A DNA stretch of 19,408 bases from Escherichia coli (GCF_003334385.1 NZ_QOWN01000061.1), one strand, 5' to 3'; positions 78-19,408 are shown, counted from the first letter of the stretch. Notes: a model not told the origin generated them from the sequence alone. A program made the numbers and translations.

Positions 78-108
78 GGAATTATCCCCGGCTTTTTTAT
101 GTATGGTC

Positions 109-1311
109 TTACAGCACCAGTGCTGCGATTGACGCAGACAGCACACTCACCAGGGTAGAGCCGTAAACCAGCTTCAGACCGAAGCGAGAAACCACGTTAC
201 CTTGCTCTTCATTCAGGCCTTTAACTGCACCTGCGATAATCCCGATTGAAGAGAAGTTAGCGAAGGAAACCAGGAACACAGAGATGATGCCTTCAGCACG
301 CGGAGAGAGCGTGGAAGCAATTTTCTGCAGATCCATCATCGCAACGAACTCGTTGGAAACCAGTTTGGTCGCCATGATACTGCCCACTTGCAGTGCTTCA
401 CTGGAAGGAACACCCATCACCCATGCAATCGGATAGAAGATGTAGCCCAGGATGCCCTGGAAGGAGATGCTGTAGCCAAACCAGCCAGTAACGGTGGCAA
501 ACAGTGCGTTCAGCGCGGCGATCAGGGCGATAAAGCCAATCAGCATCGCGGCAACGATAATGGCAACTTTGAAACCTGCCAGAATGTATTCACCCAGCAT
601 TTCGAAGAAGCTCTGACCTTCGTGCAGGTTGGACATCTGGATGTTTTCTTCACTGGCATCAACACGGTAAGGATTGATCAGCGACAGCACGATAAAGGTG
701 CTGAACATGTTCAGTACCAGCGCAGCAACGACGTATTTCGGTTCCAGCATGGTCATGTATGCACCAACGATGGACATCGACACGGTGGACATTGCCGTGG
801 CAGCCATGGTGTACATACGATTACGGGAGATTTTGCCGAGGATATCTTTATAGGCAATAAAGTTTTCAGACTGACCCAGAATCAGGGAGCTGACGGCGTT
901 AAAGGATTCCAGTTTGCCCATGCCGTTGACTTTGGAGAGCAGGAAACCAATTGCGCGGATGATCACCGGCAACACGCGAATGTGCTGGAGAATACCGATC
1001 AGTGCAGAGATAAAGACGATTGGGCACAGCACTTTCAGGAAGAAGAATGCCAGGCCTTGATCATTCATGCTACCAAAGACGAAGTTAGTCCCTTCGTTGG
1101 CAAATCCGAGCAGTTTTTCGAACATTTCGGAGAAGCCTTTCACGAAGCCTAAACCAACGTCGGAGTTCAGGAAGAACCACGCCAGTAACACTTCGATAAC
1201 AAGCAGTTGAATAACATAACGGATACGAATTTTTTTGCGGTCGCTGCTTACCAGCAGTGCGAGAATCGCAACAACGGCAAGTGCCAGTACAAAATGAAGG
1301 ACGCGGTCCAT
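109..1311 (-). CDS. nupC: Nucleoside:H+ symporter NupC (CNT family), 400 aa
   Basis: The 413-aa minus-strand ORF at 109-1350 is trimmed to the internal ATG at 1311 ([13 protein letters not shown]...), which has a GGAG Shine-Dalgarno upstream and gives the 400-aa length I recall for NupC. Polytopic membrane protein; stop TAA at 109-111. Confidence 0.93.
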
Positions 1312-1406
1312 ATTTGCTCCAAATATGAGGCAGGTTAAATTTCCGTGCACATTCTATGTAACATGGTTAAGGAAAACGAGATCTGACACACACTATAATG
1401 ACGTCC

Positions 1407-1422
1407 TGTGACAGGCTTCAAA
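1407..1422. promoter_or_regulatory. Candidate CRP-like site TGTGA-N6-TCAAA in the nupC upstream region
   Basis: TGTGAcaggctTCAAA lies about 100 bp upstream of the nupC start. nupC is known to be CRP/CytR controlled, but this site is a by-eye match to the consensus only. Confidence 0.25.
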
Positions 1423-1577
1423 AATAGTGATCTGTCATACATTTCTGCTATGTTGTGTATGGAAGCTGAAAGTTATGTAAATGTGCTAACATTAAACATA
1501 ACCATAACATTCAAGTCATCAATCTTTTCGTAGTCATAATCCTGGTCTATCAGAGAAATCACCACAATCCATTTAAA

Positions 1578-1596
1578 TGAATTTGATAATCATTCT
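1578..1596. promoter_or_regulatory. Fur box upstream of mntH
   Basis: gaatttGATAATCATTctc matches about 15 of 19 positions of the Fur consensus GATAATGATAATCATTATC, roughly 50-70 bp upstream of the mntH ATG. Iron repression of mntH is established. Confidence 0.55.
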
Positions 1597-1612
1597 CGTT
1601 TGGCATAGCATG

Positions 1613-1634
1613 AAACATAGCAAAGGCTATGTTT
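1613..1634. promoter_or_regulatory. MntR operator, a 9-4-9 palindrome
   Basis: AAACATAGC-AAAG-GCTATGTTT is a perfect inverted repeat ending 12 bp before the mntH ATG. It matches the MntR box I recall for the E. coli mntH promoter. Confidence 0.65.
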
Positions 1635-1637
1635 TAG

Positions 1638-2885
<1,248 letters not shown>

Positions 2886-2889
2886 TTGA

Positions 2890-3024
<135 letters not shown>

Positions 3025-3025
3025 T

Positions 3026-3352
3026 TTAATGGCGGTGCCCATGACCCCGGCCTTTTCCGCGATGATCGTCACGATCGCGCCAGCCTTCACGATAGCCACG
3101 CTCATACGCTTTACGCTTATCCCAGCCACGGTGGTAGCCATTATCATGACGCCACCAACGGTTTTTGCGCCACTCATAATTGCGATGCCAGTAGTCACGG
3201 TCGCGCCAGTGACCACCGTCCCAGTAATTACCGTAATGATCGCGATCGCCAATTTGTAATTTGATTGATGGCAGTAGGGTGATTTCACCTGCGTTTGCTG
3301 CAAGCGGGGTAAATGCCATCAGGGCGGCCGCCAGAAACAGTGACCTGAACAT
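3026..3352 (-). CDS. ypeC: Small secreted protein YpeC (DUF2502), 108 aa, with a signal peptide and a low-complexity R/D/W/H/Y/G-rich mature region
   Basis: Minus-strand ORF with AAGGAGA Shine-Dalgarno about 7 nt upstream of the ATG. N-terminal signal peptide [21 protein letters not shown] followed by a repetitive charged, Trp-rich sequence ending [12 protein letters not shown]. Confidence 0.88.
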
Positions 3353-3466
3353 TGTTATTCTCCTTCACGCTCGAAGCCGTCAGCGGCCTGTTAACGCAAT
3401 ATTACGGGGAGGTAAAGCCCCGTATCATCGCCATAACTCTTAAATCATAAAGGAGAGCATTTTTTG

Positions 3467-4723
3467 CTAAACGTTATCGTGGGGTGGCTGTTGCTTCGGA
3501 CGATTGACCATCATCATCGGCTTACCTGCTAATAACAGCCATGCCGGAAGCATGACGATACAGAGCAGCGGTAGCAATGTGGTATTGGGTACAACGACTG
3601 CCGCCATAAAAAGACTTAACCAGCCATCGCGTGTTACCACCAGCACGATGCCGAGAATAGCGCAAGAAACGGTTATTGCCGCTGGTACGGCGGGAACGTG
3701 CTCATGCAGCATCAACCCTAATGCCACGCCGACAAACACTGCCGGGAAGATTCGCCCACCGCGAAAGCCACTGGCGGCAGCAACGACCAGGGCGGCAAGT
3801 TTAATTACCGCCAGCAAAAAGTAATCGCTGGTGCTGAAAGCCTGATTTGCCACCATTTGCTGCATCTCATCCAGCCCTTTAAACAGCGAAACTGGTCCAC
3901 CAATAACCCCCAGAATACCGAGAATAAATCCGCCAATACCCAGCACGAGCACCGGATTTTTCATTTGATGCATCATCGCGTGCAACCGTGGTAAGCACCA
4001 TACGGCGACCATCCCTGCTGCGATGGCAATCGCCGCGACAATTGCACCGCTGAGAATATCGGTCATTTCCATCTGTCCGTAATGAGCAATGGGCAGTGAA
4101 AAATGAGGATGGAAAAATAATCCGGTAGTAAGTGCACCAGCTGCTGCCGCCATTAACGGCGCAAAGAGACGATCCCATAGCGGAACTTCACTACTGCCAT
4201 TTAAGGTTTGCGAAAATATCAACGCCGCCGCAACAGGAGTGCCAAACAGTGCGCCGATGGTTCCGGCAGAGGCTAAAATAGTCCACTCCATTCGGTTGAC
4301 GCGCGGTAACAGACGAGCGCCAATGGCAACCGCAAGGGCGATATTGACGGTCATGATCGGATGTTCCGGCCCCAGGCTGACGCCGCCAGCAAGACCGAGA
4401 ATTAATGCTACGATAAGTCCAGGTAGCGCAGAGGGCGGAACCGGTGCGCCGATCAGCGGTTCACAGGCGGGGTCTGGTCCGGCATGACCCTGGCTGAAAC
4501 GGATAACCAACCCCACCGCAATACCCGTTAGCGTTAATACACCGATGATCCAGAGGGGTGAATCCTGGGCTATCCCCAGAGTTCCCGGCAGTCGTTGCCA
4601 GAGCAAATTCTGTAATACCGAGGCGATTTTCATCACCACAATCAGAATAAGACTGGACGCAATCCCAATTGCCACGGCGGGGAGCGATAATAACAACATG
4701 GTTCTGGCTCGCGGATGGAGCAT
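3467..4723 (-). CDS. yfeO: Putative ion-transport membrane protein YfeO (ClC chloride-channel-like family), 418 aa
   Basis: 418-aa polytopic membrane ORF, Gly/Ala-rich helices. Identity and length match recalled YfeO; the family assignment is from memory. Confidence 0.85.
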
Positions 4724-4926
4724 GTTCTATTCCTTATGCGGGGTCAGATACTTAGTTTGCCCAGCTTGCAAAAAGGCATCGCTGCAATTGGTGCTGAAAC
4801 GATAAAGTAATTGTGTGACCCAGATCGATATTTACAGGGAGCCTGCCTTTCCGGCGTTGTTGTTATGCCCCCAGGTATTTACAGTGTGAGAAAGAATTAT
4901 TTTGACTTTAGCGGAGCAGTTGAAGA

Positions 4927-5892
4927 ATGACAAAGTATGCATTAGTCGGTGATGTGGGCGGCACCAACGCACGTCTTGCTCTGTGTGATATTGCCAGTGG
5001 TGAAATCTCGCAGGCTAAGACCTATTCAGGGCTTGATTACCCCAGCCTCGAAGCGGTCATTCGCGTTTATCTTGAAGAACATAAGGTCGAGGTGAAAGAC
5101 GGCTGTATTGCCATCGCTTGCCCAATTACCGGTGACTGGGTGGCGATGACCAACCATACCTGGGCGTTCTCAATTGCCGAAATGAAAAAGAATCTCGGTT
5201 TTAGCCATCTGGAAATTATTAACGATTTTACCGCTGTATCGATGGCGATCCCGATGCTGAAAAAAGAGCATCTGATTCAGTTTGGTGGCGCAGAACCGGT
5301 CGAAGGTAAGCCTATTGCGGTTTACGGTGCCGGAACGGGGCTTGGGGTTGCGCATCTGGTCCATGTCGATAAGCGTTGGGTAAGCTTGCCAGGCGAAGGC
5401 GGTCACGTTGATTTTGCGCCGAATAGTGAAGAAGAGGCCATTATCCTCGAAATATTGCGTGCGGAAATTGGTCATGTTTCGGCGGAGCGCGTGCTTTCTG
5501 GCCCTGGGCTGGTGAATTTGTATCGCGCAATTGTGAAAGCTGACAACCGCCTGCCAGAAAATCTCAAGCCAAAAGATATTACCGAACGCGCGCTGGCTGA
5601 CAGCTGCACCGATTGCCGCCGCGCATTGTCGCTGTTTTGCGTCATTATGGGCCGTTTTGGCGGCAATCTGGCGCTCAATCTCGGGACATTTGGCGGCGTG
5701 TTTATTGCGGGCGGTATCGTGCCGCGCTTCCTTGAGTTCTTCAAAGCCTCCGGTTTCCGTGCCGCATTTGAAGATAAAGGGCGCTTTAAAGAATATGTCC
5801 ATGATATTCCGGTGTATCTCATCGTCCATGACAATCCGGGCCTTCTCGGTTCCGGTGCACATTTACGCCAGACCTTAGGTCACATTCTGTAA
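4927..5892 (+). CDS. glk: Glucokinase, 321 aa
   Basis: [20 protein letters not shown]-terminal ATP-binding motif of the ROK-like glucokinase family; full length 321 aa. Stop TAA at 5890-5892. Confidence 0.96.
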
Positions 5893-5905
5893 ATCCTTCC
5901 TTTTA

Positions 5906-5937
5906 TATCGGGAGGTAACTCTCCCGATAATCTTTTA
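5906..5937 (+). terminator. Probable intrinsic terminator of glk
   Basis: Inverted repeat TATCGGGAG-gtaa-CTCCCGATA (5906-5928) followed by a short T-rich tract (aTCTTTT), 14 nt after the glk stop. Confidence 0.5.
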
Positions 5938-6110
5938 AATCATACAGTTTATTCAATTTTTCTTTGTGTCCCCTCACAAGGTCGACCTGCGTCACACTTC
6001 CGTACAGCGGGATTAATTCTCCAGTAAATGCATTATTTGTCTGGTAACGGCGATTTGTTTTGCACGTTCATAATTTCACTCGTCAACTATCACTGAACGA
6101 GGAATTAACG

Positions 6111-6437
6111 ATGAGTAAGAAACTGATTGCCTTATGTGCCTGCCCGATGGGCCTGGCTCACACCTTTATGGCCGCTCAGGCGCTGGAAGAAGCGGCGGTA
6201 GAAGCCGGTTATGAAGTGAAAATTGAAACCCAGGGCGCGGACGGTATCCAGAATCGCCTGACGGCGCAGGATATCGCCGAAGCGACCATCATCATCCACT
6301 CCGTGGCAGTTACCCCGGAAGATAACGAACGTTTCGAATCACGCGACGTTTATGAAATCACTTTGCAGGACGCAATTAAAAACGCTGCGGGCATCATCAA
6401 AGAAATCGAAGAGATGATTGCCTCTGAACAACAGTAA
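6111..6437 (+). CDS. fryB: PTS fructose-like EIIB component FryB, 108 aa
   Basis: The ORF-track start at 6060 is trimmed to the ATG at 6111, which is preceded by GAGGA. The active-site Cys context LCACPMGLAHTF is typical of fructose-type EIIB. First gene of a tightly packed five-gene operon. Confidence 0.9.
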   Translation: MSKKLIALCACPMGLAHTFMAAQALEEAAVEAGYEVKIETQGADGIQNRLTAQDIAEATIIIHSVAVTPEDNERFESRDVYEITLQDAIKNAAGIIKEIEEMIASEQQ

Positions 6438-6458
6438 TATTCGACAGGGATAATTGTT

Positions 6459-7706
6459 ATGGCCATTAAAAAACGCAGTGCAACCGTTGTGCCTGGCGCA
6501 TCCGGTGCGGCAGCGGCAGTTAAGAATCCGCAGGCCTCTAAAACCAGCTTCTGGGGTGAACTCCCGCAGCATGTGATGTCAGGGATTTCACGCATGGTGC
6601 CGACCTTAATTATGGGCGGTGTGATCCTCGCTTTCAGCCAGCTGATTGCTTATAGCTGGCTTAAAATTCCTGCTGAGATCGGCATCATGGATGCTCTTAA
6701 TAGCGGGAAATTCTCCGGTTTCGACCTCTCCTTACTTAAATTTGCCTGGCTGTCGCAGTCCTTCGGCGGCGTGTTGTTTGGTTTTGCCATTCCGATGTTT
6801 GCTGCTTTTGTGGCGAACTCTATCGGTGGCAAACTGGCGTTCCCGGCTGGTTTTATCGGCGGGTTGATGTCTACCCAGCCGACGCAACTGCTGAACTTCG
6901 ATCCCAGCACTATGCAATGGGCGACCTCTTCGCCGGTGCCGTCCACCTTCATTGGTGCGCTGATTATTTCTATCGTTGCCGGTTACCTTGTGAAGTGGAT
7001 GAACCAGAAAATCCAGTTACCGGATTTCCTGTTAGCGTTCAAAACCACATTTTTGCTCCCGATTCTTTCCGCCATTTTTGTCATGCTGGCGATGTACTAC
7101 GTCATCACCCCCTTTGGTGGCTGGATCAACGGCGGTATCCGTACTGTGCTGACTGCCGCAGGTGAGAAGGGCGCGCTGATGTACGCAATGGGGATCGCCG
7201 CGGCGACAGCAATCGACCTTGGTGGCCCGATCAACAAAGCCGCAGGTTTTGTTGCCTTCAGCTTTACCACTGACCACGTATTACCGGTCACCGCTCGTTC
7301 TATCGCTATCGTTATTCCGCCGATTGGTCTGGGGCTGGCGACCATTATCGACCGTCGTTTAACCGGCAAACGCCTGTTCAACGCTCAACTTTATCCGCAG
7401 GGTAAGACCGCCATGTTCCTGGCGTTTATGGGGATCAGTGAGGGTGCGATTCCGTTTGCGCTGGAAAGCCCCATCACCGCCATTCCGTCGTATATGGTCG
7501 GCGCTATTGTCGGCTCAACCGCCGCTGTCTGGCTGGGCGCAGTGCAATGGTTCCCGGAGTCCGCTATCTGGGCATGGCCGCTGGTCACTAACCTGGGCGT
7601 CTATATGGCGGGGATCGCGCTGGGGGCAGTCATAACTGCGCTGATGGTGGTGTTCCTGCGTCTGATGATGTTCCGTAAAGGCAAATTGTTAATCGATAGC
7701 CTGTAA
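6459..7706 (+). CDS. fryC: PTS fructose-like EIIC permease FryC, 415 aa
   Basis: Polytopic membrane ORF 22 nt downstream of fryB with an AGGGA ribosome-binding site. Length matches FryC. Confidence 0.92.
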
Positions 7707-7720
7707 GAAGGAAAATCCAG

Positions 7721-8806
7721 ATGACATTACTCGCTTCGCTGCGCGACTGGCTTAAGGCGCAACAACTGGATGTAGTGCTTCTCTCCTCACGGCAGAACAA
7801 ACAGCCGCATCTGGGGATCTCCACCGGATCAGGTTATGTGGTGATTAGCCGTGAAAGTGCGCACATTCTGGTGGATTCGCGCTATTACGTTGAGGTGGAA
7901 GCCCGTGCGCAAGGCTACCAGCTGCATTTGCTTGACGCGACGAACACGCTTACCACTATCGTCAATCAAATCATTGCCGATGAACAGTTGCAAACGCTCG
8001 GTTTTGAGGGCCAGCAGGTGAGTTGGGAAACCGCGCACCGCTGGCAGTCTGAACTCAATGCGAAACTGGTTAGCGCCACGCCGGATGTGCTGCGGCAAAT
8101 CAAAACGCCAGAGGAGGTGGAGAAAATCCGCCTCGCCTGTGGGATTGCTGATCGCGGTGCAGAGCATATTCGCCGCTTTATTCAGGCGGGGATGAGCGAG
8201 CGCGAGATAGCCGCTGAACTGGAGTGGTTTATGCGCCAGCAGGGCGCAGAAAAAGCCTCTTTTGACACCATTGTCGCCAGTGGCTGGCGTGGGGCGCTGC
8301 CGCACGGCAAAGCCAGCGACAAGATTGTTGCAGCGGGCGAGTTTGTCACTCTCGATTTCGGTGCGCTGTATCAGGGCTACTGCTCTGATATGACGCGCAC
8401 CTTGCTGGTGAATGGCGAAGGGGTGAGCGCCGAATCTCACCCGCTGTTTAACGTCTATCAAATTGTCCTGCAGGCACAGCTCGCAGCAATCTCCGCGATT
8501 CGCCCCGGCGTGCGCTGCCAGCAGGTTGACGATGCCGCGCGCCGGGTCATTACAGAAGCAGGTTATGGCGACTATTTCGGTCATAACACCGGTCACGCTA
8601 TCGGCATTGAAGTTCATGAAGATCCGCGTTTTTCACCGCGGGACACCACGACGCTACAGCCAGGCATGTTACTGACCGTGGAGCCGGGGATTTATTTGCC
8701 AGGGCAAGGGGGCGTGCGCATCGAAGATGTTGTGCTGGTTACCCCGCAAGGCGCAGAAGTGCTCTACGCCATGCCGAAAACAGTGTTGCTCACGGGAGAG
8801 GCATAA
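7721..8806 (+). CDS. ypdF: Xaa-Pro aminopeptidase YpdF (peptidase family M24), 361 aa
   Basis: M24 metal-ligand motif [13 protein letters not shown] and the pita-bread fold consensus. AGGAAAA ribosome-binding site before the ATG. Confidence 0.93.
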
Positions 8807-9843
8807 TGGATTTATCGCTATTAAAAGCGTTGAGCGAGGCAGATGCGATCGCCTCCTCGGAACAGGAAGTGCGGCAGATCCTGCTGGAAGAAGCGGATCG
8901 CCTGCAAAAAGAAGTGCGATTTGATGGTCTGGGATCGGTGCTGATCCGCCTGAATGAATCGACAGGTCCGAAGGTGATGATCTGTGCGCATATGGACGAA
9001 GTGGGATTTATGGTGCGCAGCATCTCCCGCGAAGGGGCGATTGATGTGCTGCCGGTTGGCAACGTACGCATGGCTGCCCGCCAGCTGCAGCCGGTGCGCA
9101 TCACCACCCGTGAAGAGTGCAAAATTCCAGGCCTGCTTGACGGCGACCGGCAGGGGAATGACGTCAGCGCCATGCGCGTGGACATTGGTGCGCGCTCCTA
9201 TGACGAAGTGATGCAGGCGGGAATTCGTCCCGGCGATCGCGTCACGTTTGATACCACTTTTCAGGTTCTCCCTCACCAGCGAGTGATGGGGAAAGCCTTT
9301 GATGACCGCCTCGGTTGCTATCTGCTGGTGACGTTACTGCGCGAACTGCACGACGCCGAACTACCTGCGGAAGTGTGGCTGGTGGCAAGTTCCAGCGAAG
9401 AGGTGGGATTACGCGGCGGGCAAACTGCCACCCGCGCGGTGTCGCCGGACGTCGCCATTGTGCTTGATACCGCCTGCTGGGCGAAAAACTTTGATTATGG
9501 CGCGGCTAACCATCGCCAGATTGGTAACGGGCCGATGCTGGTGTTAAGCGACAAGTCGCTGATTGCGCCGCCAAAACTTACCGCCTGGGTCGAAACCGTG
9601 GCGGCAGAAATTGGCGTGCCGTTGCAGGCAGATATGTTCAGCAACGGCGGCACGGACGGCGGGGCGGTGCACTTAACCGGCACCGGCGTGCCCACAGTGG
9701 TGATGGGGCCAGCAACCCGCCATGGACATTGCGCCGCATCGATTGCCGATTGCCGCGACATTTTGCAGATGCAGCAACTTTTATCTGCCCTTATTCAACG
9801 TCTTACGCGTGAGACGGTTGTTCAACTGACGGATTTCAGATGA
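8806..9843 (+). CDS. ypdE: Aminopeptidase YpdE (peptidase family M42, FrvX/SgcX-like), 345 aa
   Basis: M42 signature HMDEVGFMV. The start ATG overlaps the ypdF stop (TAATG), indicating translational coupling. Confidence 0.93.
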
Positions 9844-9867
9844 TCTCCTGATTAACCCGGAGCGGTT

Positions 9868-12363
9868 ATGTTAACGATTCAATTTCTCTGTCCTTTGCCT
9901 AACGGTCTACATGCTCGTCCGGCGTGGGAACTTAAAGAACAGTGCAGCCAGTGGCAAAGCGAAATCACTTTTATTAACCATCGCCAGAACGCAAAGGCAG
10001 ATGCGAAAAGCTCGCTGGCGCTGATTGGCACCGGCACCCTATTTAATGACAGTTGCAGCCTGAACATTAGCGGCAGCGATGAAGAGCAGGCGCGGCGCGT
10101 GCTGGAAGAGTACATCTAGGTGTGCTTTATCGACAGCGACAGCGTTCAGCCTACGCAGGCAGAACTGACGGCGCATCCGCTGCCGCGTTCATTAAGCCGC
10201 CTTAACCCGGATTTACTGTACGGCAATGTGCTGGCAAGCGGCGTCGGCGTGGGTACGCTGACCCTGTTACAAAGCGACAGCCTCGACAGTTATCGGGCAA
10301 TCCCCGCCAGTGCGCAAGATTCCACCCGGCTGGAGCACAGCCTGGCAACGCTTGCCGAGCAACTGAACCAGCAATTGCGTGAGCGTGACGGCGAAAGCAA
10401 AACTATCCTCAGCGCCCATTTGTCGCTGATTCAGGATGATGAATTTGCAGGCAATATCCGTCGCCTGATGACAGAACAGCATCAGGGGCTGGGGGCGGCG
10501 ATCATCAGCAATATGGAGCAGGTTTGCGCCAAACTTTCTGCCTCTGCCAGCGATTATCTGCGCGAACGTGTTAGCGACATTCGCGATATCAGCGAACAGT
10601 TGCTGCATATCACCTGGCCGGAACTGAAGCCGCGCAACAAGCTGGTGCTTGAAAAACCGACCATTCTGGTGGCTGAAGATTTAACCCCAAGCCAGTTTTT
10701 GAGCCTTGATTTGAAAAATCTTGCGGGCATGATTCTGGAGAAAACCGGGCGCACCTCGCATACACTGATTCTGGCCCGTGCCTCGGCGATCCCGGTACTG
10801 AGTGGCTTGCCGCTGGATGCGATTGCCCGTTATGCCGGGCAACCTGCAGTGCTTGACGCCCAGTGCGGCGTGCTGGCGATTAACCCGAATGACGCGGTGA
10901 GCGGTTATTATCAGGTCGCGCAGACGCTGGCGGATAAACGCCAAAAACAACAGGCGCAGGCTGCCGCGCAGCTGGCCTATTCCCGTGATAACAAGCGTAT
11001 TGATATTGCGGCGAATATCGGCACCGCTCTGGAAGCGCCAGGCGCGTTTGCCAACGGCGCGGAAGGTGTCGGGCTGTTCCGTACCGAAATGCTCTATATG
11101 GATCGCGACAGCGCGCCGGACGAGCAGGAGCAATTTGAAGCCTACCAGCAGGTGCTACTGGCGGCGGGCGACAAGCCGATTATCTTCCGCACGATGGACA
11201 TCGGCGGCGATAAAAGCATTCCTTATCTGAATATTCCCCAGGAAGAGAACCCGTTCCTCGGCTATCGCGCGGTACGTATTTACCCGGAATTTGCTGGCCT
11301 GTTCCGCACTCAACTGCGGGCCATTTTGCGCGCCGCCAGTTTCGGCAACGCCCAGTTGATGATCCCGATGGTTCACAGCCTCGATCAGATCTTATGGGTG
11401 AAAGGCGAGATCCAAAAAGCGATCGTTGAGCTTAAGCGCGATGGCCTGCGTCATGCAGAGACGATTACGCTTGGGATCATGGTGGAAGTTCCGTCGGTGT
11501 GCTACATCATCGACCACTTCTGCGATGAGGTCGATTTCTTCAGTATCGGCTCCAACGATATGACCCAGTATCTGTATGCGGTCGATCGTAATAACCCGCG
11601 CGTATCGCCGCTATATAACCCGATTACGCCATCGTTCCTGCGCATGTTGCAGCAAATAGTTACCACTGCGCATCAGCGGGGCAAATGGGTAGGCATTTGC
11701 GGTGAACTGGGCGGTGAAAGCCGTTATCTGCCGCTACTGCTTGGGCTGGGCCTGGATGAGCTGAGTATGAGTAGCCCGCGTATTCCGGCGGTGAAAAGCC
11801 AGCTTCGTCAACTGGATAGCGAGGCGTGTCGGGAACTGGCGCGTCAGGCATGTGAATGCCGCAGTGCGCAGGAAATTGAAGCGTTACTCACCGCCTTTAC
11901 GCCGGAAGAAGACGTTCGCCCACTGCTGGCGCTGGAGAATATCTTTGTTGATCAGGATTTTAGCAATAAAGAGCAGGCGATCCAGTTCCTGTGCGGCAAC
12001 CTCGGCGTTAACGGGCGCACTGAACATCCGTTTGAGCTGGAAGAAGATGTCTGGCAGCGGGAAGAGATTGTTACCACCGGCGTTGGTTTTGGCGTAGCGA
12101 TCCCGCACACCAAATCTCAGTGGATCCGTCATTCCAGTATCAGCATTGCCCGGCTGGCGAAACCGATTGGCTGGCAGTCAGAAATGGGCGAAGTCGAACT
12201 GGTGATCATGCTGACGCTGGGTGCTAACGAAGGGATGAATCATGTGAAAGTCTTCTCGCAGCTGGCGCGTAAACTGGTGAATAAAAACTTCCGCCAGTCG
12301 TTGTTTGCCGCGCAAGATGCACAAAGTATCCTGACGCTGCTGGAAACAGAATTAACCTTCTGA
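9868..12363 (+). CDS. fryA: PTS multiphosphoryl transfer protein FryA (fused HPr-like, Enzyme I-like and EIIA-Fru-like domains). As written, the frame is interrupted by an in-frame TAG at 10117-10119, giving an 83-codon HPr-like ORF (9868-10119) and a 747-codon EI-EIIA ORF (10120-12363).
   Basis: The HPr motif GLHARPA, the EI phospho-His motif GRTSHTLILARA and the EIIA motif GVAIPH are all present in one frame. The span is 2496 nt, which equals 832 codons, the size of a single 831-aa fused protein. The TAG is visible directly in the sequence (TAC ATC TAG GTG TGC). Confidence 0.85.
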
Positions 12364-12365
12364 CG

Positions 12366-13223
12366 TTAGCCCTGAAAACGGGCGCTGTACTCTCCCGGCG
12401 TCAGACCAAACTGACGCCGGAAAACGCGACAAAAATAGTCGCTATCCGGAAAACCGCAACGCTGTGCCACTTCATGAATTGACAGATGATATTTCTGCAA
12501 AATCATCCTCGCCTTCGCCATTCGCACCCAACGCACATACTCGATAAAACGCATCGTTCCATGCTGAGCAAACAGTTTTGACAGATGATTGGGCGTGATA
12601 TTAAAAAACTGCGCCACGCTCTCGCGGGTGAGCGGCTGGGCATAATTATCCTGAACCCAGTTACAAATGCTGTGATAGAGAAAATCGCCGCGCGGCTGCG
12701 AATTGCCCGGCGGCATATTCACCACGCTACGGCAAAGATGCAGCAAACTTAACACCAGCGGCTGAATGATATTTTGCTCCAGCGGCGAACGGCTAAGATG
12801 GGTGAGGGCGGTAAGCATCGCTTCACCTTCACCGCGTTGCAGGCTGGGAAGCTGGATCTGGCGAGCAGGATGCAACAACGACGTGGTGCGGCTATCGTAA
12901 AACGATAACCCAAGCCAGGTCGGAGCGAACACCAGGCTTAACAGCATCACCGGTTTGTTGTTGACCGGTAAATTAGCCGCGCGCGCCGGAATAAACAGCA
13001 TTTCTCCTTCCACCAAACGTTGCTGCTTTGCTTCCAGCAGATTGCCGTATTCGCCGCGCAGCACGATATCCAGACGGGGAAAATCAATACATAAACTGCC
13101 CACCGGCAACGAGGCAGGCTGGCTGGCAAACCAGACGCGCCCCAGTAGTTGCGGGTTAAGCACCAGGCCGCTGAACAGATCGGCGAAAAATTGTTGATCG
13201 GCGGGCAAGCCTGGTGCTTTCAT
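12366..13223 (-). CDS. ypdC: AraC-family transcriptional regulator YpdC, 285 aa
   Basis: C-terminal AraC-type helix-turn-helix (…FIEYVRWVRMAKARMILQ…HEVAQRCGFPDSDYFCRVFRRQFGLTPGEY). Stop TAA at 12366-12368, 2 nt from the fryA stop. Confidence 0.9.
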   Translation of the reverse strand: MKAPGLPADQQFFADLFSGLVLNPQLLGRVWFASQPASLPVGSLCIDFPRLDIVLRGEYGNLLEAKQQRLVEGEMLFIPARAANLPVNNKPVMLLSLVFAPTWLGLSFYDSRTTSLLHPARQIQLPSLQRGEGEAMLTALTHLSRSPLEQNIIQPLVLSLLHLCRSVVNMPPGNSQPRGDFLYHSICNWVQDNYAQPLTRESVAQFFNITPNHLSKLFAQHGTMRFIEYVRWVRMAKARMILQKYHLSIHEVAQRCGFPDSDYFCRVFRRQFGLTPGEYSARFQG

Positions 13224-13235
13224 GAAAGTTCCCGA

Positions 13236-13970
13236 TTAAAGATGCATTAACTGGCGAAATTCTTTCACTTTGCTGCGGCTGACCGGCACTTCAAAATCCA
13301 GATCTTTCAGTCGCAGAATGTAGGTGTTATTAAACCACGGTTCGATTTCGCGTATTTTGTTCAGATTGACACAAAATGAGCGATGGCAGCGGAAAAAATG
13401 CGACGGCGGCAGTTTGCTGCAAAATTCGGTAATGTTCATCGGCATTACGTAGGATTCACGCCGCGTATAGACAAAGGTCATTTTCTCGTGCGCTTCGGCG
13501 TAATAGATATCGTTAATTGGCGTGACGATTATTCGCTCATCTTTCACCAGATTAATGGTGTCATTCTCACGCGTTACCGTCGCGGCAGGCGTACTGCTGG
13601 TCTGCTGTTGTTGCCAGGCCGCTTCCAGTTTTTGCAGCATCCCGGTAATACGTGACTCCTGATACGGTTTGAGAATGTAGTCAAACGCCTCCAGTTCAAA
13701 CGCTTCTACCGCATGTTCTTTCCACGCGGTGATGAACACAATAAACGGTTTATGGGCGAACTGGCTGATGTTTTGCGCCAGCAACACGCCATCCAGCGAC
13801 GGAATATTGATATCCAGAAAAATGGCGTCGACGCGGTTATGCTGCAAAAACTTCAACACGTCCAGACCGTCGTCAAAGGTGCCGACAATCTCCATCTGGC
13901 TGTGCTCTTTAATTAGCCAGCTCAGTTCCTGTTGTGCCAGGAATTCGTCTTCAACAATGATGACTTTCAC
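13236..13970 (-). CDS. ypdB: LytTR-family response regulator YpdB, 244 aa
   Basis: Receiver domain (VIIVEDE…AIFLDINIP) plus a C-terminal LytTR DNA-binding domain. The ORF-track TTG start at 13988 is trimmed to the GTG at 13970, preceded by GGAG, giving 244 aa. Confidence 0.88.
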   Translation of the reverse strand: MKVIIVEDEFLAQQELSWLIKEHSQMEIVGTFDDGLDVLKFLQHNRVDAIFLDINIPSLDGVLLAQNISQFAHKPFIVFITAWKEHAVEAFELEAFDYILKPYQESRITGMLQKLEAAWQQQQTSSTPAATVTRENDTINLVKDERIIVTPINDIYYAEAHEKMTFVYTRRESYVMPMNITEFCSKLPPSHFFRCHRSFCVNLNKIREIEPWFNNTYILRLKDLDFEVPVSRSKVKEFRQLMHL

Positions 13971-13984
13971 AATATCACTCCGGC

Positions 13985-15682
13985 TCAAAGCAATAACGTA
14001 GCCTGTGAGGCGACTGGGGTGCGTTGGTTAGGAATGTAAAACGCAATTTCCGTCCCCGGCTCCAGGCGGCGGATATGCAGCCCCTCGCCATACAATAACT
14101 TCACGCGATGATGGACATTCAGCAGGCCAATTTTATTGCCCGGCATTTCATTCGCTTCGACCCGCTCAATCACCTTTGGATCGATGCCGTGCCCGGTATC
14201 TCGCACCGCAATGCGTACCCGATTTCCGCACTCTGCAACGCTGATGGTGACAACGCCTTTACCTTTGCAAGGCTGAATACCGTGGACAATGGCGTTCTCC
14301 ACCAACGGCTGGATCAGCAGGCTGGGAATGCAGCAATTCACCTCTTCATCAATATCATAGATAACCGTCAGCTTGTCACCAAAGCGGGCCTGCTCAATGG
14401 CAATATAGTCTTTAATTTGATACAGCTCTTTTTTGATATCGATTTGCTCATCGTCTTTTAATTCAATGTTATAGCGCAGATAACGCGACAGATTAAAGAT
14501 CAACTGGCGAGCGGTATCCGGATTCAGACGGATTGACGATGAAATAGCGTTCAGAGCGTTAAACAGAAAATGGGGATTAATTTTGCTTTGCAGGGCGCGA
14601 AGCTCTGCCTTATTTGCCATTTCACGTAGCTGCTCGGCGCGTGAAACCTCCAGTTGCGTGGAGATGATTTGCGACAGACCGACCGCCATTTCCTGTAATG
14701 ACGAGGTGATCTGATGCGCGTGGCAGTAGTAAATTTTCAGCGTTCCGGTCACGACCCCTTTCTCCCACAATGGGATCACCAGCATGGAATGAATCTCTGG
14801 TGTGCGGTGGGCTTCATCATTGTTTTTAATGATGATTTTTCCGTAATTCATCGCCTGACGGGTAGTCGGGCTAATGAAGTCATCGCCATTCTGATAGTTA
14901 TGTTCACCCACGCCAACATAGGCCAGCACATGATCGGTATTAGTAATCGCCACCGCATCGGCGTGAATGTCATCGCGGATAATTTCGCAGACCTTGCGTA
15001 ATGACTCGCTATTGACATGGCGAAACAGCGGTAGCGTTTTGTTGGCGATATCCAGCGCCAGCTTGGCCTGCCGCGCGGCGCTGGCCTCTTTTTCGCCCTC
15101 AACGCTTTGCACCAGAAGCACAATAAAGCCGATACAGACGCTACCGAGGATCATTGGAATGCCGATTTTAGAGACGATATCGATCCCCAACGCGGTAGTT
15201 GGTGCCCAGACAATTACCAGAATCATGGTCAACGTCTCACACAACATGCCGCCGAGAATACCGACGCGCCAGCGCTGTGCTTTGGGGATTTTCAGGTTGA
15301 TCCAGCCCGATATACAACCCGCCAGAATGCTGGTGATAAAGCAGGGGATCGCCGTCACGCCGCCGATATCAATTAAATACCGGTGAATACCCGCAATCAC
15401 GCCGGTAATGATGCCTACCCACGGGCCAAACAGAATCCCGCCGGACATCACCGCGATAATACGTACGTTCACCAGCGAGCCTTCTACGGGAACGCCGGAC
15501 CAGGTGCTGAACAGGGCGAACAGCGAGAAAATGGCGGTAACGGCGAGCAATTCTTTTGGGGAGTGCGCCGACTTGTGCAACAGTTCGCGAAACAGGCGGA
15601 TACGGATGAGAAAGAACAGGCAGATAAGCATTAACGCTGCCCGATCGAAGACCGCCAGCAGCATGTTGAATATTTCGTGCAC
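13985..15682 (-). CDS. ypdA: LytS-family sensor histidine kinase YpdA, 565 aa
   Basis: N-terminal multi-transmembrane sensor domain, a central GAF-like region, the H-box [10 protein letters not shown] and a C-terminal ATPase domain. It lies immediately upstream of ypdB on the same strand. Confidence 0.93.
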
Positions 15683-16057
15683 GGGTGACTCTGAATAAGG
15701 ATTAAACCTCTATGATAGGTAACCTGAAGGCTGATGACCAGCAGGCCGTTTTTGAGGAAAAACCACAATTTTAAAAGGGGATTGATAGATAAATGGTGTA
15801 TTAGCAATGCATCTCTTGATAATGCACTTCTGGTTAGTAAAATTATTGAAATTATTATGTTAATAAAATGAGTGGTAATTTTCTTGTTAGCGCAGATAAA
15901 TTTCCTGTTTTTAAAGCAGAGTTCCTCATTTAACGTCATTAATAAAATGTTCTAAAACGCTGGACAGACAGAAATTAATCAGGCTATTTTCAAAACAGCC
16001 ACCATCGTGGCAGCGTCGCTCGGACGGTCCGGGCGCTAACGTTAATCTGAGGAAATT

Positions 16058-17296
16058 ATGGCTGACACTCGCCCTGAACGTCGCTTTACGCGCATTGATC
16101 GTCTCCCGCCCTACGTTTTTAACATCACCGCTGAACTGAAAATGGCTGCGCGTCGGCGCGGCGAAGATATTATCGATTTCAGCATGGGTAACCCGGACGG
16201 TGCGACTCCGCCGCATATCGTCGAAAAATTATGTACTGTGGCCCAGCGCCCGGACACGCATGGTTACTCCACTTCACGCGGCATTCCGCGGTTACGTCGC
16301 GCCATTTCCCGCTGGTATCAGGATCGCTACGACGTTGAAATCGACCCGGAATCAGAAGCCATCGTCACTATTGGTTCGAAAGAGGGCCTGGCGCATCTGA
16401 TGCTGGCGACGCTGGATCATGGTGACACGGTGCTGGTGCCGAATCCAAGTTACCCGATCCATATTTATGGCGCGGTGATTGCCGGGGCGCAGGTACGCTC
16501 AGTGCCGCTGGTGGAAGGTGTCGATTTCTTCAACGAACTGGAGCGAGCCATTCGTGAAAGTTATCCGAAACCGAAGATGATGATCCTCGGCTTCCCGTCA
16601 AACCCAACCGCGCAATGCGTGGAACTGGAGTTCTTCGAAAAAGTAGTGGCGCTGGCGAAACGCTACGATGTGCTGGTGGTCCATGACCTGGCCTATGCCG
16701 ATATCGTCTACGATGGCTGGAAAGCGCCGTCAATTATGCAGGTACCGGGTGCACGCGATGTGGCAGTCGAGTTCTTTACGCTGTCGAAAAGCTACAACAT
16801 GGCGGGCTGGCGTATCGGCTTTATGGTTGGCAACAAAACGCTGGTCAGCGCCCTGGCTCGTATTAAAAGCTATCACGATTACGGCACCTTTACGCCGTTG
16901 CAGGTGGCGGCGATTGCGGCGCTGGAGGGCGATCAACAGTGCGTGCGCGACATTGCCGAACAGTACAAACGCCGCCGTGATGTATTGGTTAAAGGGCTGC
17001 ATGAAGCGGGCTGGATGGTTGAAATGCCGAAGGCTTCGATGTATGTCTGGGCGAAAATCCCGGAACCATATGCGGCCATGGGATCGCTGGAATTTGCCAA
17101 GAAGCTCCTTAACGAAGCGAAGGTTTGTGTCTCGCCGGGGATTGGCTTTGGCGACTATGGTGATACGCATGTTCGCTTTGCACTGATTGAAAACCGCGAC
17201 CGTATTCGTCAGGCCATCAGAGGGATTAAAGCGATGTTCCGTGCCGACGGTTTACTACCCGCCAGCAGCAAACATATTCACGAAAACGCGGAATAA
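16058..17296 (+). CDS. alaC: Glutamate-pyruvate aminotransferase AlaC (class I PLP-dependent aminotransferase), 412 aa
   Basis: PLP-lysine region [12 protein letters not shown] and aminotransferase class I fold motifs. Full-length ORF with a GAGG ribosome-binding site. Confidence 0.95.
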
Positions 17297-17315
17297 ACAC
17301 CGTCGTCAGAAATGC

Positions 17316-17346
17316 AAACAGGAGCCTGATGGCTCCTGTTTTTCAT
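17316..17346. terminator. Intrinsic terminator, probably bidirectional for alaC (+) and ypdK (-)
   Basis: Perfect 8-bp GC-rich stem CAGGAGCC-tgat-GGCTCCTG followed by TTTTTCA on the plus strand, with AAA on the 5' side providing a T-run for the minus strand. Confidence 0.75.
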
Positions 17347-17360
17347 TGCACAGTTTGCTT

Positions 17361-17432
17361 TTAGATCATCAGGGCAAAAGTACCGGCCCAAACGATGACC
17401 ATAAAAGAAATGCCCATAAAGAAATATTTCAC
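17361..17432 (-). CDS. ypdK: 23-aa hydrophobic micro-protein YpdK (MKYFFMGISFMVIVWAGTFALMI), GTG start
   Basis: Hand-translated from the minus strand: GTG at 17432-17430, stop TAA at 17363-17361, GGAG about 9 nt upstream. It is below the ORF-track length cutoff. The sequence matches my recollection of K-12 YpdK. Confidence 0.6.
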   Translation of the reverse strand: MKYFFMGISFMVIVWAGTFALMI

Positions 17433-17705
17433 TTTACATCTCTCCGCGTAATTACTGTTACGCCTGAATGACTTCATTACACCTGATACAGTGAGTTGAC
17501 ACCGGGCAAAGCGACCTTAAAAGCCCTGTATTTTACCGTGGGCATCACCCCAGAATTCTGAGCTAAACTGCTCGAGACGGCGCTAATGTACGCCTAAAAC
17601 TGAAACGAGACAAGAGGCATTTTCTTATTTACTTTTAGTAACTTACAAGTGTCTCATATCGGCGACAGTTTAATTTCTGACGGTAATAATTAGATATTCA
17701 GCGAA

Positions 17706-17754
17706 GGAAAAAACCTTAAGAAAAAAGCCATAAAAACCATGAGGTTATTATGGC
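17706..17754 (-). terminator. Probable intrinsic terminator of lpxP
   Basis: A 12-bp stem with one mismatch (GCCATAAAAACC-atga-GGTTATTATGGC, 17727-17754) about 35 nt after the lpxP stop, followed on the minus strand by TTTTTTCTTAAGGTTTTTTCC. Confidence 0.55.
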
Positions 17755-17787
17755 CGATTTGAGGAGGGAAAGAGTAAGAGCAGTTTG

Positions 17788-18708
17788 TTAAATGTACAAC
17801 GACGATTCTCCCACCGGGCGCGTTTTAAAGCGACGGTGGATCCAGAGGTACTGCTCCGGTGCGCGCATGATCTCTTTCTCGATAATCTTGTTCATATAGG
17901 CAGCGGCTTGATTTTCATCTGTCGGGTAGCCTTCCATCTCTGGGGTGATGAACAAACGATATCCGCTGTAATCCGCTTTTCTTACCATCGTTACGGTCAA
18001 CATGGCTGCGCCAGAGAGACGGGAGAGAACATAGGTGCCATTGGTTGTGGCGACATTTTCCACCGCAAAGAACGGCGCGAAGGAGCTGCCTTTACGACCA
18101 TAATCCTGATCGGGAGCAAACCATACCGCTTCACCTTTCTTCAGTGCACCGACAATGCCGCGCAGATTATTTCTGCCGATCATCGCTTTGTTAGAGCGCA
18201 TGCGCCCACGGGTCTGCACCCATTCCATCAGCTGATTATTATGTGGACGATAGGTAGCCATCATTGGTTGGCACAGTCCCATCACGCGGCCGCCCAGTTC
18301 CAGCGACATAAAATGGACGCCGACAACCATTACGCCGCGATTTTGCATTTGTGCGCGTTTAAGGTTATCCAACCCTTCAACATCAAACCATTTACGTACG
18401 CGACTGTCGGGCCAGAACCATGCCATGCCGGTTTCTACCAGCGCCATGCCGAGTGAACGAAAGTTTTCGGCAATCATCTTCTCGCGTTCTTCCGCAGAAT
18501 GCTGCGGGAAACAAAGTTCCAGGTTTTTACGGGCGATAGATTCACGACGTTTCAGGAATGGTCGCGCCATTGCGCCAATACGCGTGCCGAGAAAGCAGAG
18601 AACAGGATAAGGAAGCTGTACCCAAAGCCAGAGTACACCAAGCCCAAACCATGTGAGCCAGTAGCGAGGATGTAGAAACTCGCGGGAAAATTTGCATTGT
18701 GGAAACAT
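17788..18708 (-). CDS. lpxP: Lipid A biosynthesis palmitoleoyl-ACP acyltransferase LpxP (cold-induced LpxL paralogue), 306 aa
   Basis: LpxL/LpxM/LpxP acyltransferase family. The ORF-track start at 18774 is trimmed to the ATG at 18708 (MFPQCKFSREF...), preceded by AAGG, giving the expected 306 aa. Calling it lpxP rather than lpxL rests on synteny with alaC and yfdY. Confidence 0.88.
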   Translation of the reverse strand: MFPQCKFSREFLHPRYWLTWFGLGVLWLWVQLPYPVLCFLGTRIGAMARPFLKRRESIARKNLELCFPQHSAEEREKMIAENFRSLGMALVETGMAWFWPDSRVRKWFDVEGLDNLKRAQMQNRGVMVVGVHFMSLELGGRVMGLCQPMMATYRPHNNQLMEWVQTRGRMRSNKAMIGRNNLRGIVGALKKGEAVWFAPDQDYGRKGSSFAPFFAVENVATTNGTYVLSRLSGAAMLTVTMVRKADYSGYRLFITPEMEGYPTDENQAAAYMNKIIEKEIMRAPEQYLWIHRRFKTRPVGESSLYI

Positions 18709-19060
18709 AGTTACCTTCTGTAGATACGAATTGTTGTATCGCAGAAGATTCCATGTCGACAGCGGTACACTCAATTGGTTGGGCCATCATGTACGACAAT
18801 GGTTCCTGTAAAGAGTGTAAAGACTAGTCAGGACATAACCACGAGGAGCATGAATGCGGTATCTGTACTTTATCACTCGCTGACTGCTTTCAGCTACTGA
18901 TTATTAATCGTGCAAAGTAAATATTTTTCCGTACACAACAGTCTTGCATTTAACATGCTGTTTTCATTGATGCTTAGCAAAAATTGCCAGAGGTTAAGGA
19001 TTGTCTTACTATTAAAGTGACTGAAGTTACAGGTTTTTTAGCGCGGCAGGAGGTTGAGCT

Positions 19061-19303
19061 ATGATTAATTTATGGATGTTTCTCGCCCTGTGTATTGTCT
19101 GCGTAAGCGGCTACATCGGTCAGGTACTGAACGTGGTATCGGCGGTCTCTTCTTTCTTCGGCATGGTGATCCTCGCTGCACTCATTTATTACTTCACCAT
19201 GTGGTTAACTGGCGGTAATGAACTAGTGACGGGGATATTTATGTTTCTTGCCCCGGCTTGTGGCTTGATGATTCGCTTTATGGTGGGGTATGGCAGGCGG
19301 TAG
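19061..19303 (+). CDS. yfdY: Small inner-membrane protein YfdY (DUF2545), 80 aa
   Basis: 80-aa ORF with two to three hydrophobic helices and a GGAGG Shine-Dalgarno 7 nt upstream of the ATG. Matches recalled YfdY. Confidence 0.85.
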   Translation: MINLWMFLALCIVCVSGYIGQVLNVVSAVSSFFGMVILAALIYYFTMWLTGGNELVTGIFMFLAPACGLMIRFMVGYGRR

Positions 19304-19408
19304 TGGGTCAGGATGGCTCATTTGGGCAGGTTGATCTTACCCAGCAATAGTGGACACGCGGCTAAGTGAGTAAACTCTCAGTCAGAGGTGACTCACATGA
19401 CAAAAACA

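Follow-up and report, generated by a model that had tools for sequence, protein, structure and literature searches.

The change of CCAGG to CTAGG, which turns a CAG codon into TAG, is the classical amber hotspot of 5-methylcytosine deamination, and is normally countered by Vsr. Amber hotspots at the CCAGG sites of lacI were reportedly described by Coulondre, Miller, Farabaugh and Gilbert in 1978, and Lieb is said to have found in 1991 that these lacI CCAGG hotspots are suppressed by Vsr very-short-patch repair. Translation is known to restart beyond nonsense codons in lacI, with its restart proteins, and in T4 rIIB, and ribosomes are known to scan after termination. A Gln-inserting amber suppressor tRNA reverses a CAG-to-TAG change at the protein level. 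In the general PTS, HPr and Enzyme I (EI) are encoded by separate genes, ptsH and ptsI, each of which has a ribosome-binding site of its own and which are conserved as a pair of genes. In genomes of natural E. coli and Salmonella, C-to-T changes at the inner C of CCWGG occur at an 8-fold higher rate (Cherry, 2018, J Bacteriol 200:e00371-18, via PMC9520237), and the latter article also summarises the Vsr very-short-patch repair pathway.

The window, i.e., the whole stretch of 19,408 nt that was analysed, is collinear with E. coli K-12 MG1655 on comparison with the annotated K-12 locus, and has the gene order nupC-mntH-ypeC-yfeO-glk-fryB-fryC-ypdF-ypdE-fryA-ypdC-ypdB-ypdA-alaC-ypdK-lpxP-yfdY. 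A tRNA scan of the window gave no tRNA gene, and an Rfam scan of it gave no match. The operon ends with fryA, so that a stop codon within this gene has no downstream target for polarity. The operon and the parts of the interrupted gene are given below, the four upstream genes being placed from the collinear K-12 annotation and the ORF list.

6111-6437, + strand: fryB, upstream in the fryA operon
6459-7706, + strand: fryC, upstream in the fryA operon
7721-8806, + strand: ypdF, upstream in the fryA operon
8806-9843, + strand: ypdE, upstream in the fryA operon
9868-12363, + strand: fryA, amber-interrupted, 832 codons including the stop, collinear with the K-12 CDS of 831 aa
9868-10119, + strand: 5' fragment, 83 codons and TAG from an ATG start, HPr-like domain, product matching PF00381
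10116-10120: mutated Dcm site CTAGG, which is CCAGG in K-12, ATCC 11775, L1PEag1 and O55:H7
10117-10119, + strand: amber codon TAG, Gln84 to stop, from C10117T
10120-12363, + strand: downstream ORF, 747 codons from GTG, comprising the linker, Enzyme I and EIIA-Fru-type domains, stop codon at 12361-12363

The K-12 counterpart is called ptsP, phosphoenolpyruvate--protein phosphotransferase, in RefSeq and multiphosphoryl transfer protein 1 in UniRef, and the fryA of the window differs from it at 2 of 2496 nt (C10117T and C10123T). The codons around the stop read ..GAG TAC ATC TAG GTG TGC.., in frame with ATG 9868. The motifs of all three parts are found, namely GLHARPA of HPr, GRTSHTLILARA of Enzyme I and GVAIPH of EIIA; the His15 codon of the HPr-like fragment lies at 9910-9912, and the phosphorylatable His residues are unbroken in the HPr and EI parts alike. 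The initial annotation, made from the window alone, had reported the 747-codon continuation, these three motifs and a span of 2496 nt equal to that of the single K-12 CDS, and all of this was verified. Its claim of a nonsense codon where a sense codon is expected also holds, since K-12 has CAG here and no complete genome tested has TAG; in the alignment to reference alleles, position 10117 is C in K-12 and T in the window.

The placement of the stop exactly at the boundary between HPr and Enzyme I was nearly right. In the K-12 protein, Pfam assigns HPr to residues 6-84, PEP-utilisers_N to 119-234, the mobile domain to 262-334, the PEP-binding domain to 360-650 and EIIA_2 to 687-826. The stop costs the HPr model its last residue, and a 34-residue linker comes next, before EI. 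Alignments to solved HPr structures extend to FryA residues 84-88, and by this structural alignment the 83-aa fragment stops about 4 residues short of where a free-standing HPr would end. The domain order and the fryBC-ypdFE-fryA operon setting are those of FryA-type HPr-EI-EIIA proteins, and the single reading frame of that family is interrupted by the amber at codon 84; what the window has is thus a broken allele of a FryA fusion gene.

Over the 18,464 nt that the window has in common with the fetched K-12 locus there are 7 substitutions and 0 indels, and C-to-T accounts for 5 of the 7. They are listed as K-12 base to window base.

1661, C to T: silent in mntH and R29C in ypeD, a small gene that overlaps it
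3857, C to T: silent in yfeO
7773, C to T: A18V in ypdF
8442, T to C: L241P in ypdF
10117, C to T: Q84 to stop in fryA (CAG, Gln84, to TAG), hereafter Q84*
10123, C to T, + strand: R86C in fryA (CGC, Arg86), which is the second codon of the downstream ORF
15842, T to A: intergenic

The substitution at 10117 affects the internal cytosine of an ancestral CCWGG site, and the same C-to-T change at the same cytosine is present in 17 of 17 other carrier loci. The methylated position on the opposite strand of this site has changed as well, by G-to-A (CAG to CAA), in 4 complete genomes. Some long-read basecallers are known to have difficulty with Dcm motifs, and a sequencing or assembly artefact with a true C at 10117 might also be suspected from the absence of the allele in every complete genome tested. 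However, a Logan contig found through the exact 747-aa product (ERR1948963_27) equals window positions 2918-19361 at 100% identity over 16,444 nt; the assembly is short-read-derived and the contig is common to 6 samples. Assemblies of many different projects, in NCBI, ENA and Logan alike, have the same amber. Likewise, over the 18.4 kb in common with K-12, 42 of 43 Dcm sites are unchanged and the one that differs is the fryA CTAGG, which rules out a systematic methylation-linked basecalling error. An artefact is hence scarcely credible, and the sequencing error that the initial annotation had offered as one option was refuted by the identical independent assembly and the many projects with the same change. 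The TAG at 10117-10119 is real.

The share of C-to-T among the substitutions, 5 of 7, and the presence of two changes 6 nt apart also led us to consider a mutagenised or base-edited laboratory strain. This candidate was dropped. There is no suitably placed NGG PAM for base editing, some of the SNPs are natural polymorphisms (7773T occurs in carriers L002 and L003, and 8442C in every other locus), and the TAG recurs in unrelated assemblies of very different backgrounds.

The allele is rare. The 67-mer of the window is absent from 5,426 complete RefSeq E. coli genomes, in which the best matches have 2 mismatches, and TAG-bearing 33-mers of the two main local contexts gave no match among the same 5,426 genomes, as compared to 1,136 complete genomes matched by a wild-type control 33-mer. 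Reference genomes uniformly carrying TAG, a situation envisaged in the initial annotation, are therefore not what was found in the contexts tested. Outside the complete genomes, the exact 83-aa product is present in 268 blocks of a large sequence collection and in 184 public contigs, and the exact 747-aa downstream product in 2 contigs only. When places with the 83-aa product were sampled, 10 of 10 had a true stop followed by the 747-aa gene.

The carriers have diverse fryA sequences. The 18 that were compared, comprising the window plus 17 loci among which several contigs were fetched twice, resolve into at least 11 haplotypes of fryA that differ from one another at up to 128 of 2496 nt (~5%), and the 747-codon downstream frame is unbroken in all of them. 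Several carriers are nearly identical to a complete genome that has the intact gene, as follows.

Carrier L007: nearest complete genome the type strain ATCC 11775, differing only at nt 250 (C to T) of 2496
Carrier L008: nearest complete genome strain L1PEag1, differing only at nt 250 (C to T) of 2496
Carriers L004 and L005: nearest complete genome O55:H7 RM12579, differing at nt 250 and 1-2 others of 2496

Since carriers match different complete genomes except at nt 250 (and 1-2 other positions), the fryA sequences indicate that Q84* arose independently on K-12-like, ATCC 11775, O55:H7 and L1PEag1 backgrounds. The spread of TAG by a single recombination tract was considered and dropped, as flanking markers 4-80 nt on either side of the stop vary among carriers and two carriers equal a complete genome save for one base. 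The description of the change as a strain-specific nonsense polymorphism did not survive either, the same mutation being found on at least 11 haplotypes.

A site that mutates by methylcytosine deamination is expected to recur more often than unmethylated sites. As controls, we took two further nonsense sites that a single transition can create; both lie in this invariant HPr domain and outside Dcm sites. Raw counts of exact-match blocks were misleading as a frequency, many of the 73-aa and 39-aa matches being genes cut by contig ends, and hence verified stops and haplotypes were counted instead. Q74* appears in 91 blocks, but in 7 of 10 places that were sampled the gene is cut by the end of a contig, and its real cases comprise 2 K-12-like haplotypes; for Q40*, 1 of the 3 places that were sampled has a real stop. 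The Dcm codon thus has at least 11 haplotypes against 2 and 1 backgrounds. This excess is semi-quantitative, for clonal sampling and independent events are confounded in counts of blocks or contigs and the control codons are only two, and on that footing it fits the published hotspot size. In each respect that could be tested, Q84* has the properties of a Dcm-hotspot amber mutation.

Recurrence could also come mainly from positive selection for fryA inactivation, in stationary phase or on laboratory passage, codon 84 being merely a convenient place for it. The gene can indeed be lost, as is evident from its other independent lesions: Q74* and Q40*, a deletion of 19 bp that shifts the frame in 4 STEC genomes, and a range of fragments in Shigella. 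A 48-bp in-frame fryA deletion was moreover found to give better fitness after prolonged LB culture (PMC5364489). However, such selection would be expected to hit many codons, yet the Dcm codon outnumbers two comparable Gln codons of the same domain; there is no large clade with the allele, and the gene is normally kept. Selection as the main cause is consequently improbable in our estimation, although, in view of the deletion that was advantageous in LB culture, selection for such lesions might contribute to the recurrence.

The evidence that fryA is normally kept comes from the intact alleles, for which dN/dS is 0.03-0.06 between phylogroup-scale haplotypes; in the HPr domain dN is 0, with no amino-acid change. 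This low dN/dS points to strong purifying selection and implies that the species maintains fryA, a gene of unknown substrate (PMC5364489). That the allele keeps arising and yet does not become common is consistent with mutation-selection balance at a hotspot. Q84* is a recurrent and rare allele, probably one of loss of function, and most likely an incipient pseudogene. Among the five options that the initial annotation had listed for the stop, early pseudogenisation is thus the best fit; the probable cause, a Dcm CCAGG hotspot, was not in that list.

The alternative to loss of function is that the split gene still works. The TAG directly adjoins GTG 10120-10122, so that terminating ribosomes could in principle reinitiate at the GTG, by analogy with known restarts, and some EI-EIIA product could arise from this arrangement and from the frame that is intact in carriers. 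In a functional fission of this kind the cell would make the HPr-like protein and EI-EIIA as two molecules that still pass phosphate in trans, as the products of ptsH and ptsI do, and the recurrence of the allele would then reflect tolerance or selection. The position of the stop at the end of the HPr domain and ahead of the linker, the adjacent in-frame TAG and GTG, the whole 747-codon frame in all 11 carrier haplotypes, the separate HPr and Enzyme I of the general PTS and the documented restarts in lacI and T4 rIIB all speak for it.

The features of the GTG itself speak against it. It is the ancestral Val85 codon in the comparison of K-12, ATCC 11775, L1PEag1 and O55:H7, and relatives have CAG GTG inside one ORF rather than two conserved genes. 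The best anti-SD duplex at the GTG is -3.3 kcal/mol, against a background of -2.1 +/- 2.4 in which 29% of random positions are as good, and against -4.3 to -11.0 kcal/mol at 14 of 15 annotated starts in the window. Similarly, the local 60-nt fold around the GTG, at -20.8 kcal/mol, is the most stable among the starts examined. The weak SD match and the stable fold make de novo initiation at the GTG unlikely and, together with its ancestral status, indicate on the evidence of sequence features that the stop-GTG arrangement is coincidental and not evolved. The absence of the allele from all 5,426 complete genomes and its occurrence only on scattered backgrounds suit a deleterious variant that a hotspot keeps supplying, and the HPr-like fragment is short of the C-terminal residues noted above. 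Functional fission is on balance unlikely. Its fuller form, in which Q84* would be a viable recurrent fission aided by selection (as in stationary phase) besides the Dcm hotspot, with products that cooperate or that lower Fry activity and with R86C as a second-step adjustment at codon 2, is a doubtful proposition.

Full-length FryA with Gln84 might instead be restored by readthrough, through natural leakiness or a suppressor of the supE (glnV) type, which inserts Gln and would reverse exactly this CAG-to-TAG change. The K-12-like backbone of the window would be in keeping with such a suppressor. However, the window has no tRNA gene, and the other carriers have backgrounds that differ on the scale of phylogroups, in which suppressors are not expected. 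Moreover, purposeful in-frame stops, as in programmed readthrough or recoding, are conserved among relatives, but the fryA TAG is derived and rare and its wild-type codon is CAG. Readthrough is accordingly a highly improbable account of the allele.

The second fryA substitution, R86C, had been overlooked in the initial annotation, as had the Dcm site of the mutated C and the recurrence. C10123T sits 6 nt from C10117T, and the chance of 2 of 7 random sites lying so close is ~0.013. R86C alone is a lineage polymorphism in 5 complete genomes and underlies carrier L008, whereas L024 and L025, the other TAG carriers of K-12-like background, lack it. A templated double mutation, from a quasi-palindrome or an ectopic donor, was rejected for want of a supporting template within the window, where, on both strands, no second copy exists of any word that covers both sites (>=8 nt) or either one (>=10 nt). 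A compensatory role of R86C, opening the mRNA for reinitiation, found no support: the fold is -20.8 kcal/mol with R86C as compared to -17.8 kcal/mol with TAG alone, and the new GTG at 10122-10124 is out of frame. The proximity of C10123T may reflect clustered deamination, chance or an adjustment after the split.

Taken together, a natural fryA amber allele that came about by deamination at a Dcm site, is recurrent and rare, and most likely entails loss or strong reduction of function is the reading that we hold to be likely. Dcm, whose gene lies outside the window as does vsr, would methylate the internal cytosine of CCAGG in the source strain, the 5-methylcytosine would deaminate spontaneously to thymine, and the resulting T:G mismatch would escape Vsr very-short-patch repair, upon which replication would fix CAG as TAG. 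Because the CCAGG site would be hypermutable, the same allele would be regenerated on unrelated E. coli backgrounds, and because selection maintains intact fryA it would stay rare. Translation from ATG 9868 would end after the 83-residue HPr-like fragment, and EI-EIIA would come only from inefficient reinitiation at the adjacent GTG or from amber readthrough.

Q84* is an ordinary rare gene-breaking variant of a well-known kind and involves no new mechanism. It is of use nonetheless in several ways. It offers a natural example in which the methylated cytosine of a CCAGG site would repeatedly give the same amber in unrelated lineages, with selection keeping the allele rare. For annotation, an 'HPr family phosphocarrier protein' beside a 747-aa 'ptsP' should be taken as a broken fryA and not as a two-gene operon. 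For phylogeny, the base is homoplasic and unfit as a marker. It is also a ready-made natural allele for testing a fused PTS phosphorelay protein that is cut at a domain junction.

Among the described systems, the lacI hotspots are alike in the CCAGG site, the internal Dcm-methylated C, the C-to-T change and the conversion of CAG (Gln) to TAG (amber). They differ in being laboratory-selected mutants, whereas fryA Q84* is natural, segregating and located in a chromosomal PTS gene, at a site that is presumably methylated. The restarts of lacI and T4 rIIB share with fryA a premature stop and a nearby in-frame GUG, which could allow reinitiation without a strong SD; the sequence features that were scored for the fryA restart are weak. 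Split fryA resembles ptsHI in its HPr-then-EI gene order and in the intact His residues of both parts, but here the two ORFs result from a rare, derived lesion in a fusion that is otherwise conserved, and the second has no evolved start signal. Lastly, the recurrence of fryA Q84* would be an instance of the methylation-associated hypermutation of natural populations (Cherry, 2018, via PMC9520237), which is a genome-wide statistic; here it concerns one site, at which the same change puts a stop at a domain junction.

The second change beside the amber mutation (C10117T, fryA codon 84, CAG to TAG) lies very close to it, and the further differences from the K-12 MG1655 locus lie in several genes and in intergenic DNA. 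The features concerned are as follows.

Differences of the window from K-12 MG1655
1661: C to T, synonymous in codon 5 of mntH and R29C at the last residue of the overlapping 29-aa gene ypeD
7773 and 8442: substitutions in ypdF, giving YpdF A18V and L241P
10123: C to T, 6 nt 3' of the amber mutation, giving R86C in fryA, which is codon 2 of the downstream ORF
15842: T to A in the ypdA-alaC intergenic region, TAAATTTATT becoming TAAAATTATT
19332-19408: IS3 left end, the last 77 bases, which match IS3 and where collinearity with K-12 is lost

A spacing as tight as that between 10117 and 10123 has a chance probability of about 0.013, and the change at 10123 also makes a new out-of-frame GTG at 10122-10124. 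Over the whole window, C-to-T on the plus strand accounts for five of the seven differences from the K-12 locus, four of which fall on the coding strand of the affected gene; these numbers are too small for a signature. In ypdF, 7773T is common to the window and two comparison loci (L002 and L003), and the exact YpdF protein of the window is found in 138 blocks of the public collection by exact look-up. At 8442, all eight other loci compared carry C (Pro), and K-12 is the odd one out, not the window.

Other lesions are found in fryA. At codon 84, CAA is found in four complete STEC genomes; this corresponds to G-to-A at the opposite-strand cytosine of the Dcm site. The two of these genomes that were inspected share a further lesion.

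fryA nt 506-524: 19-bp frameshifting deletion in strains 2013C-4830 (L038) and 90-3040 (L039)

In these two genomes the fryA pieces carry the RefSeq labels ‘HPr family phosphocarrier protein,’ ptsP (partial) and ‘fructose PTS transporter subunit IIA.’ The gene, with both CAA and the deletion, is an independent pseudogene. Further incomplete ‘HPr family phosphocarrier protein’ fragments, 94-182 aa long, occur in NCBI records for Shigella sonnei and S. flexneri, which suggests more independent fryA disruptions in Shigella. Many public assemblies (L015-L023) have contig breaks at two repeated positions within fryA, nt 117-118 and 219-220, which result in partial gene calls resembling truncated proteins of 39 and 73 aa in exact-sequence look-ups. 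Such contig-end calls are a trap when nonsense alleles are counted in this way.

At the right end, the IS3 segment finishes with ATGACAAAAACA, reading M-T-K-T..., and the Logan contig ERR1948963_27 ends 30 nt into the element. Comparison with the K-12 locus places the insertion point in the yfdY/ypdI interval, where MG1655 is without the element. Strain ES4 has the identical sequence at another site, inside yfdX, with the annotation IS3 transposase element.
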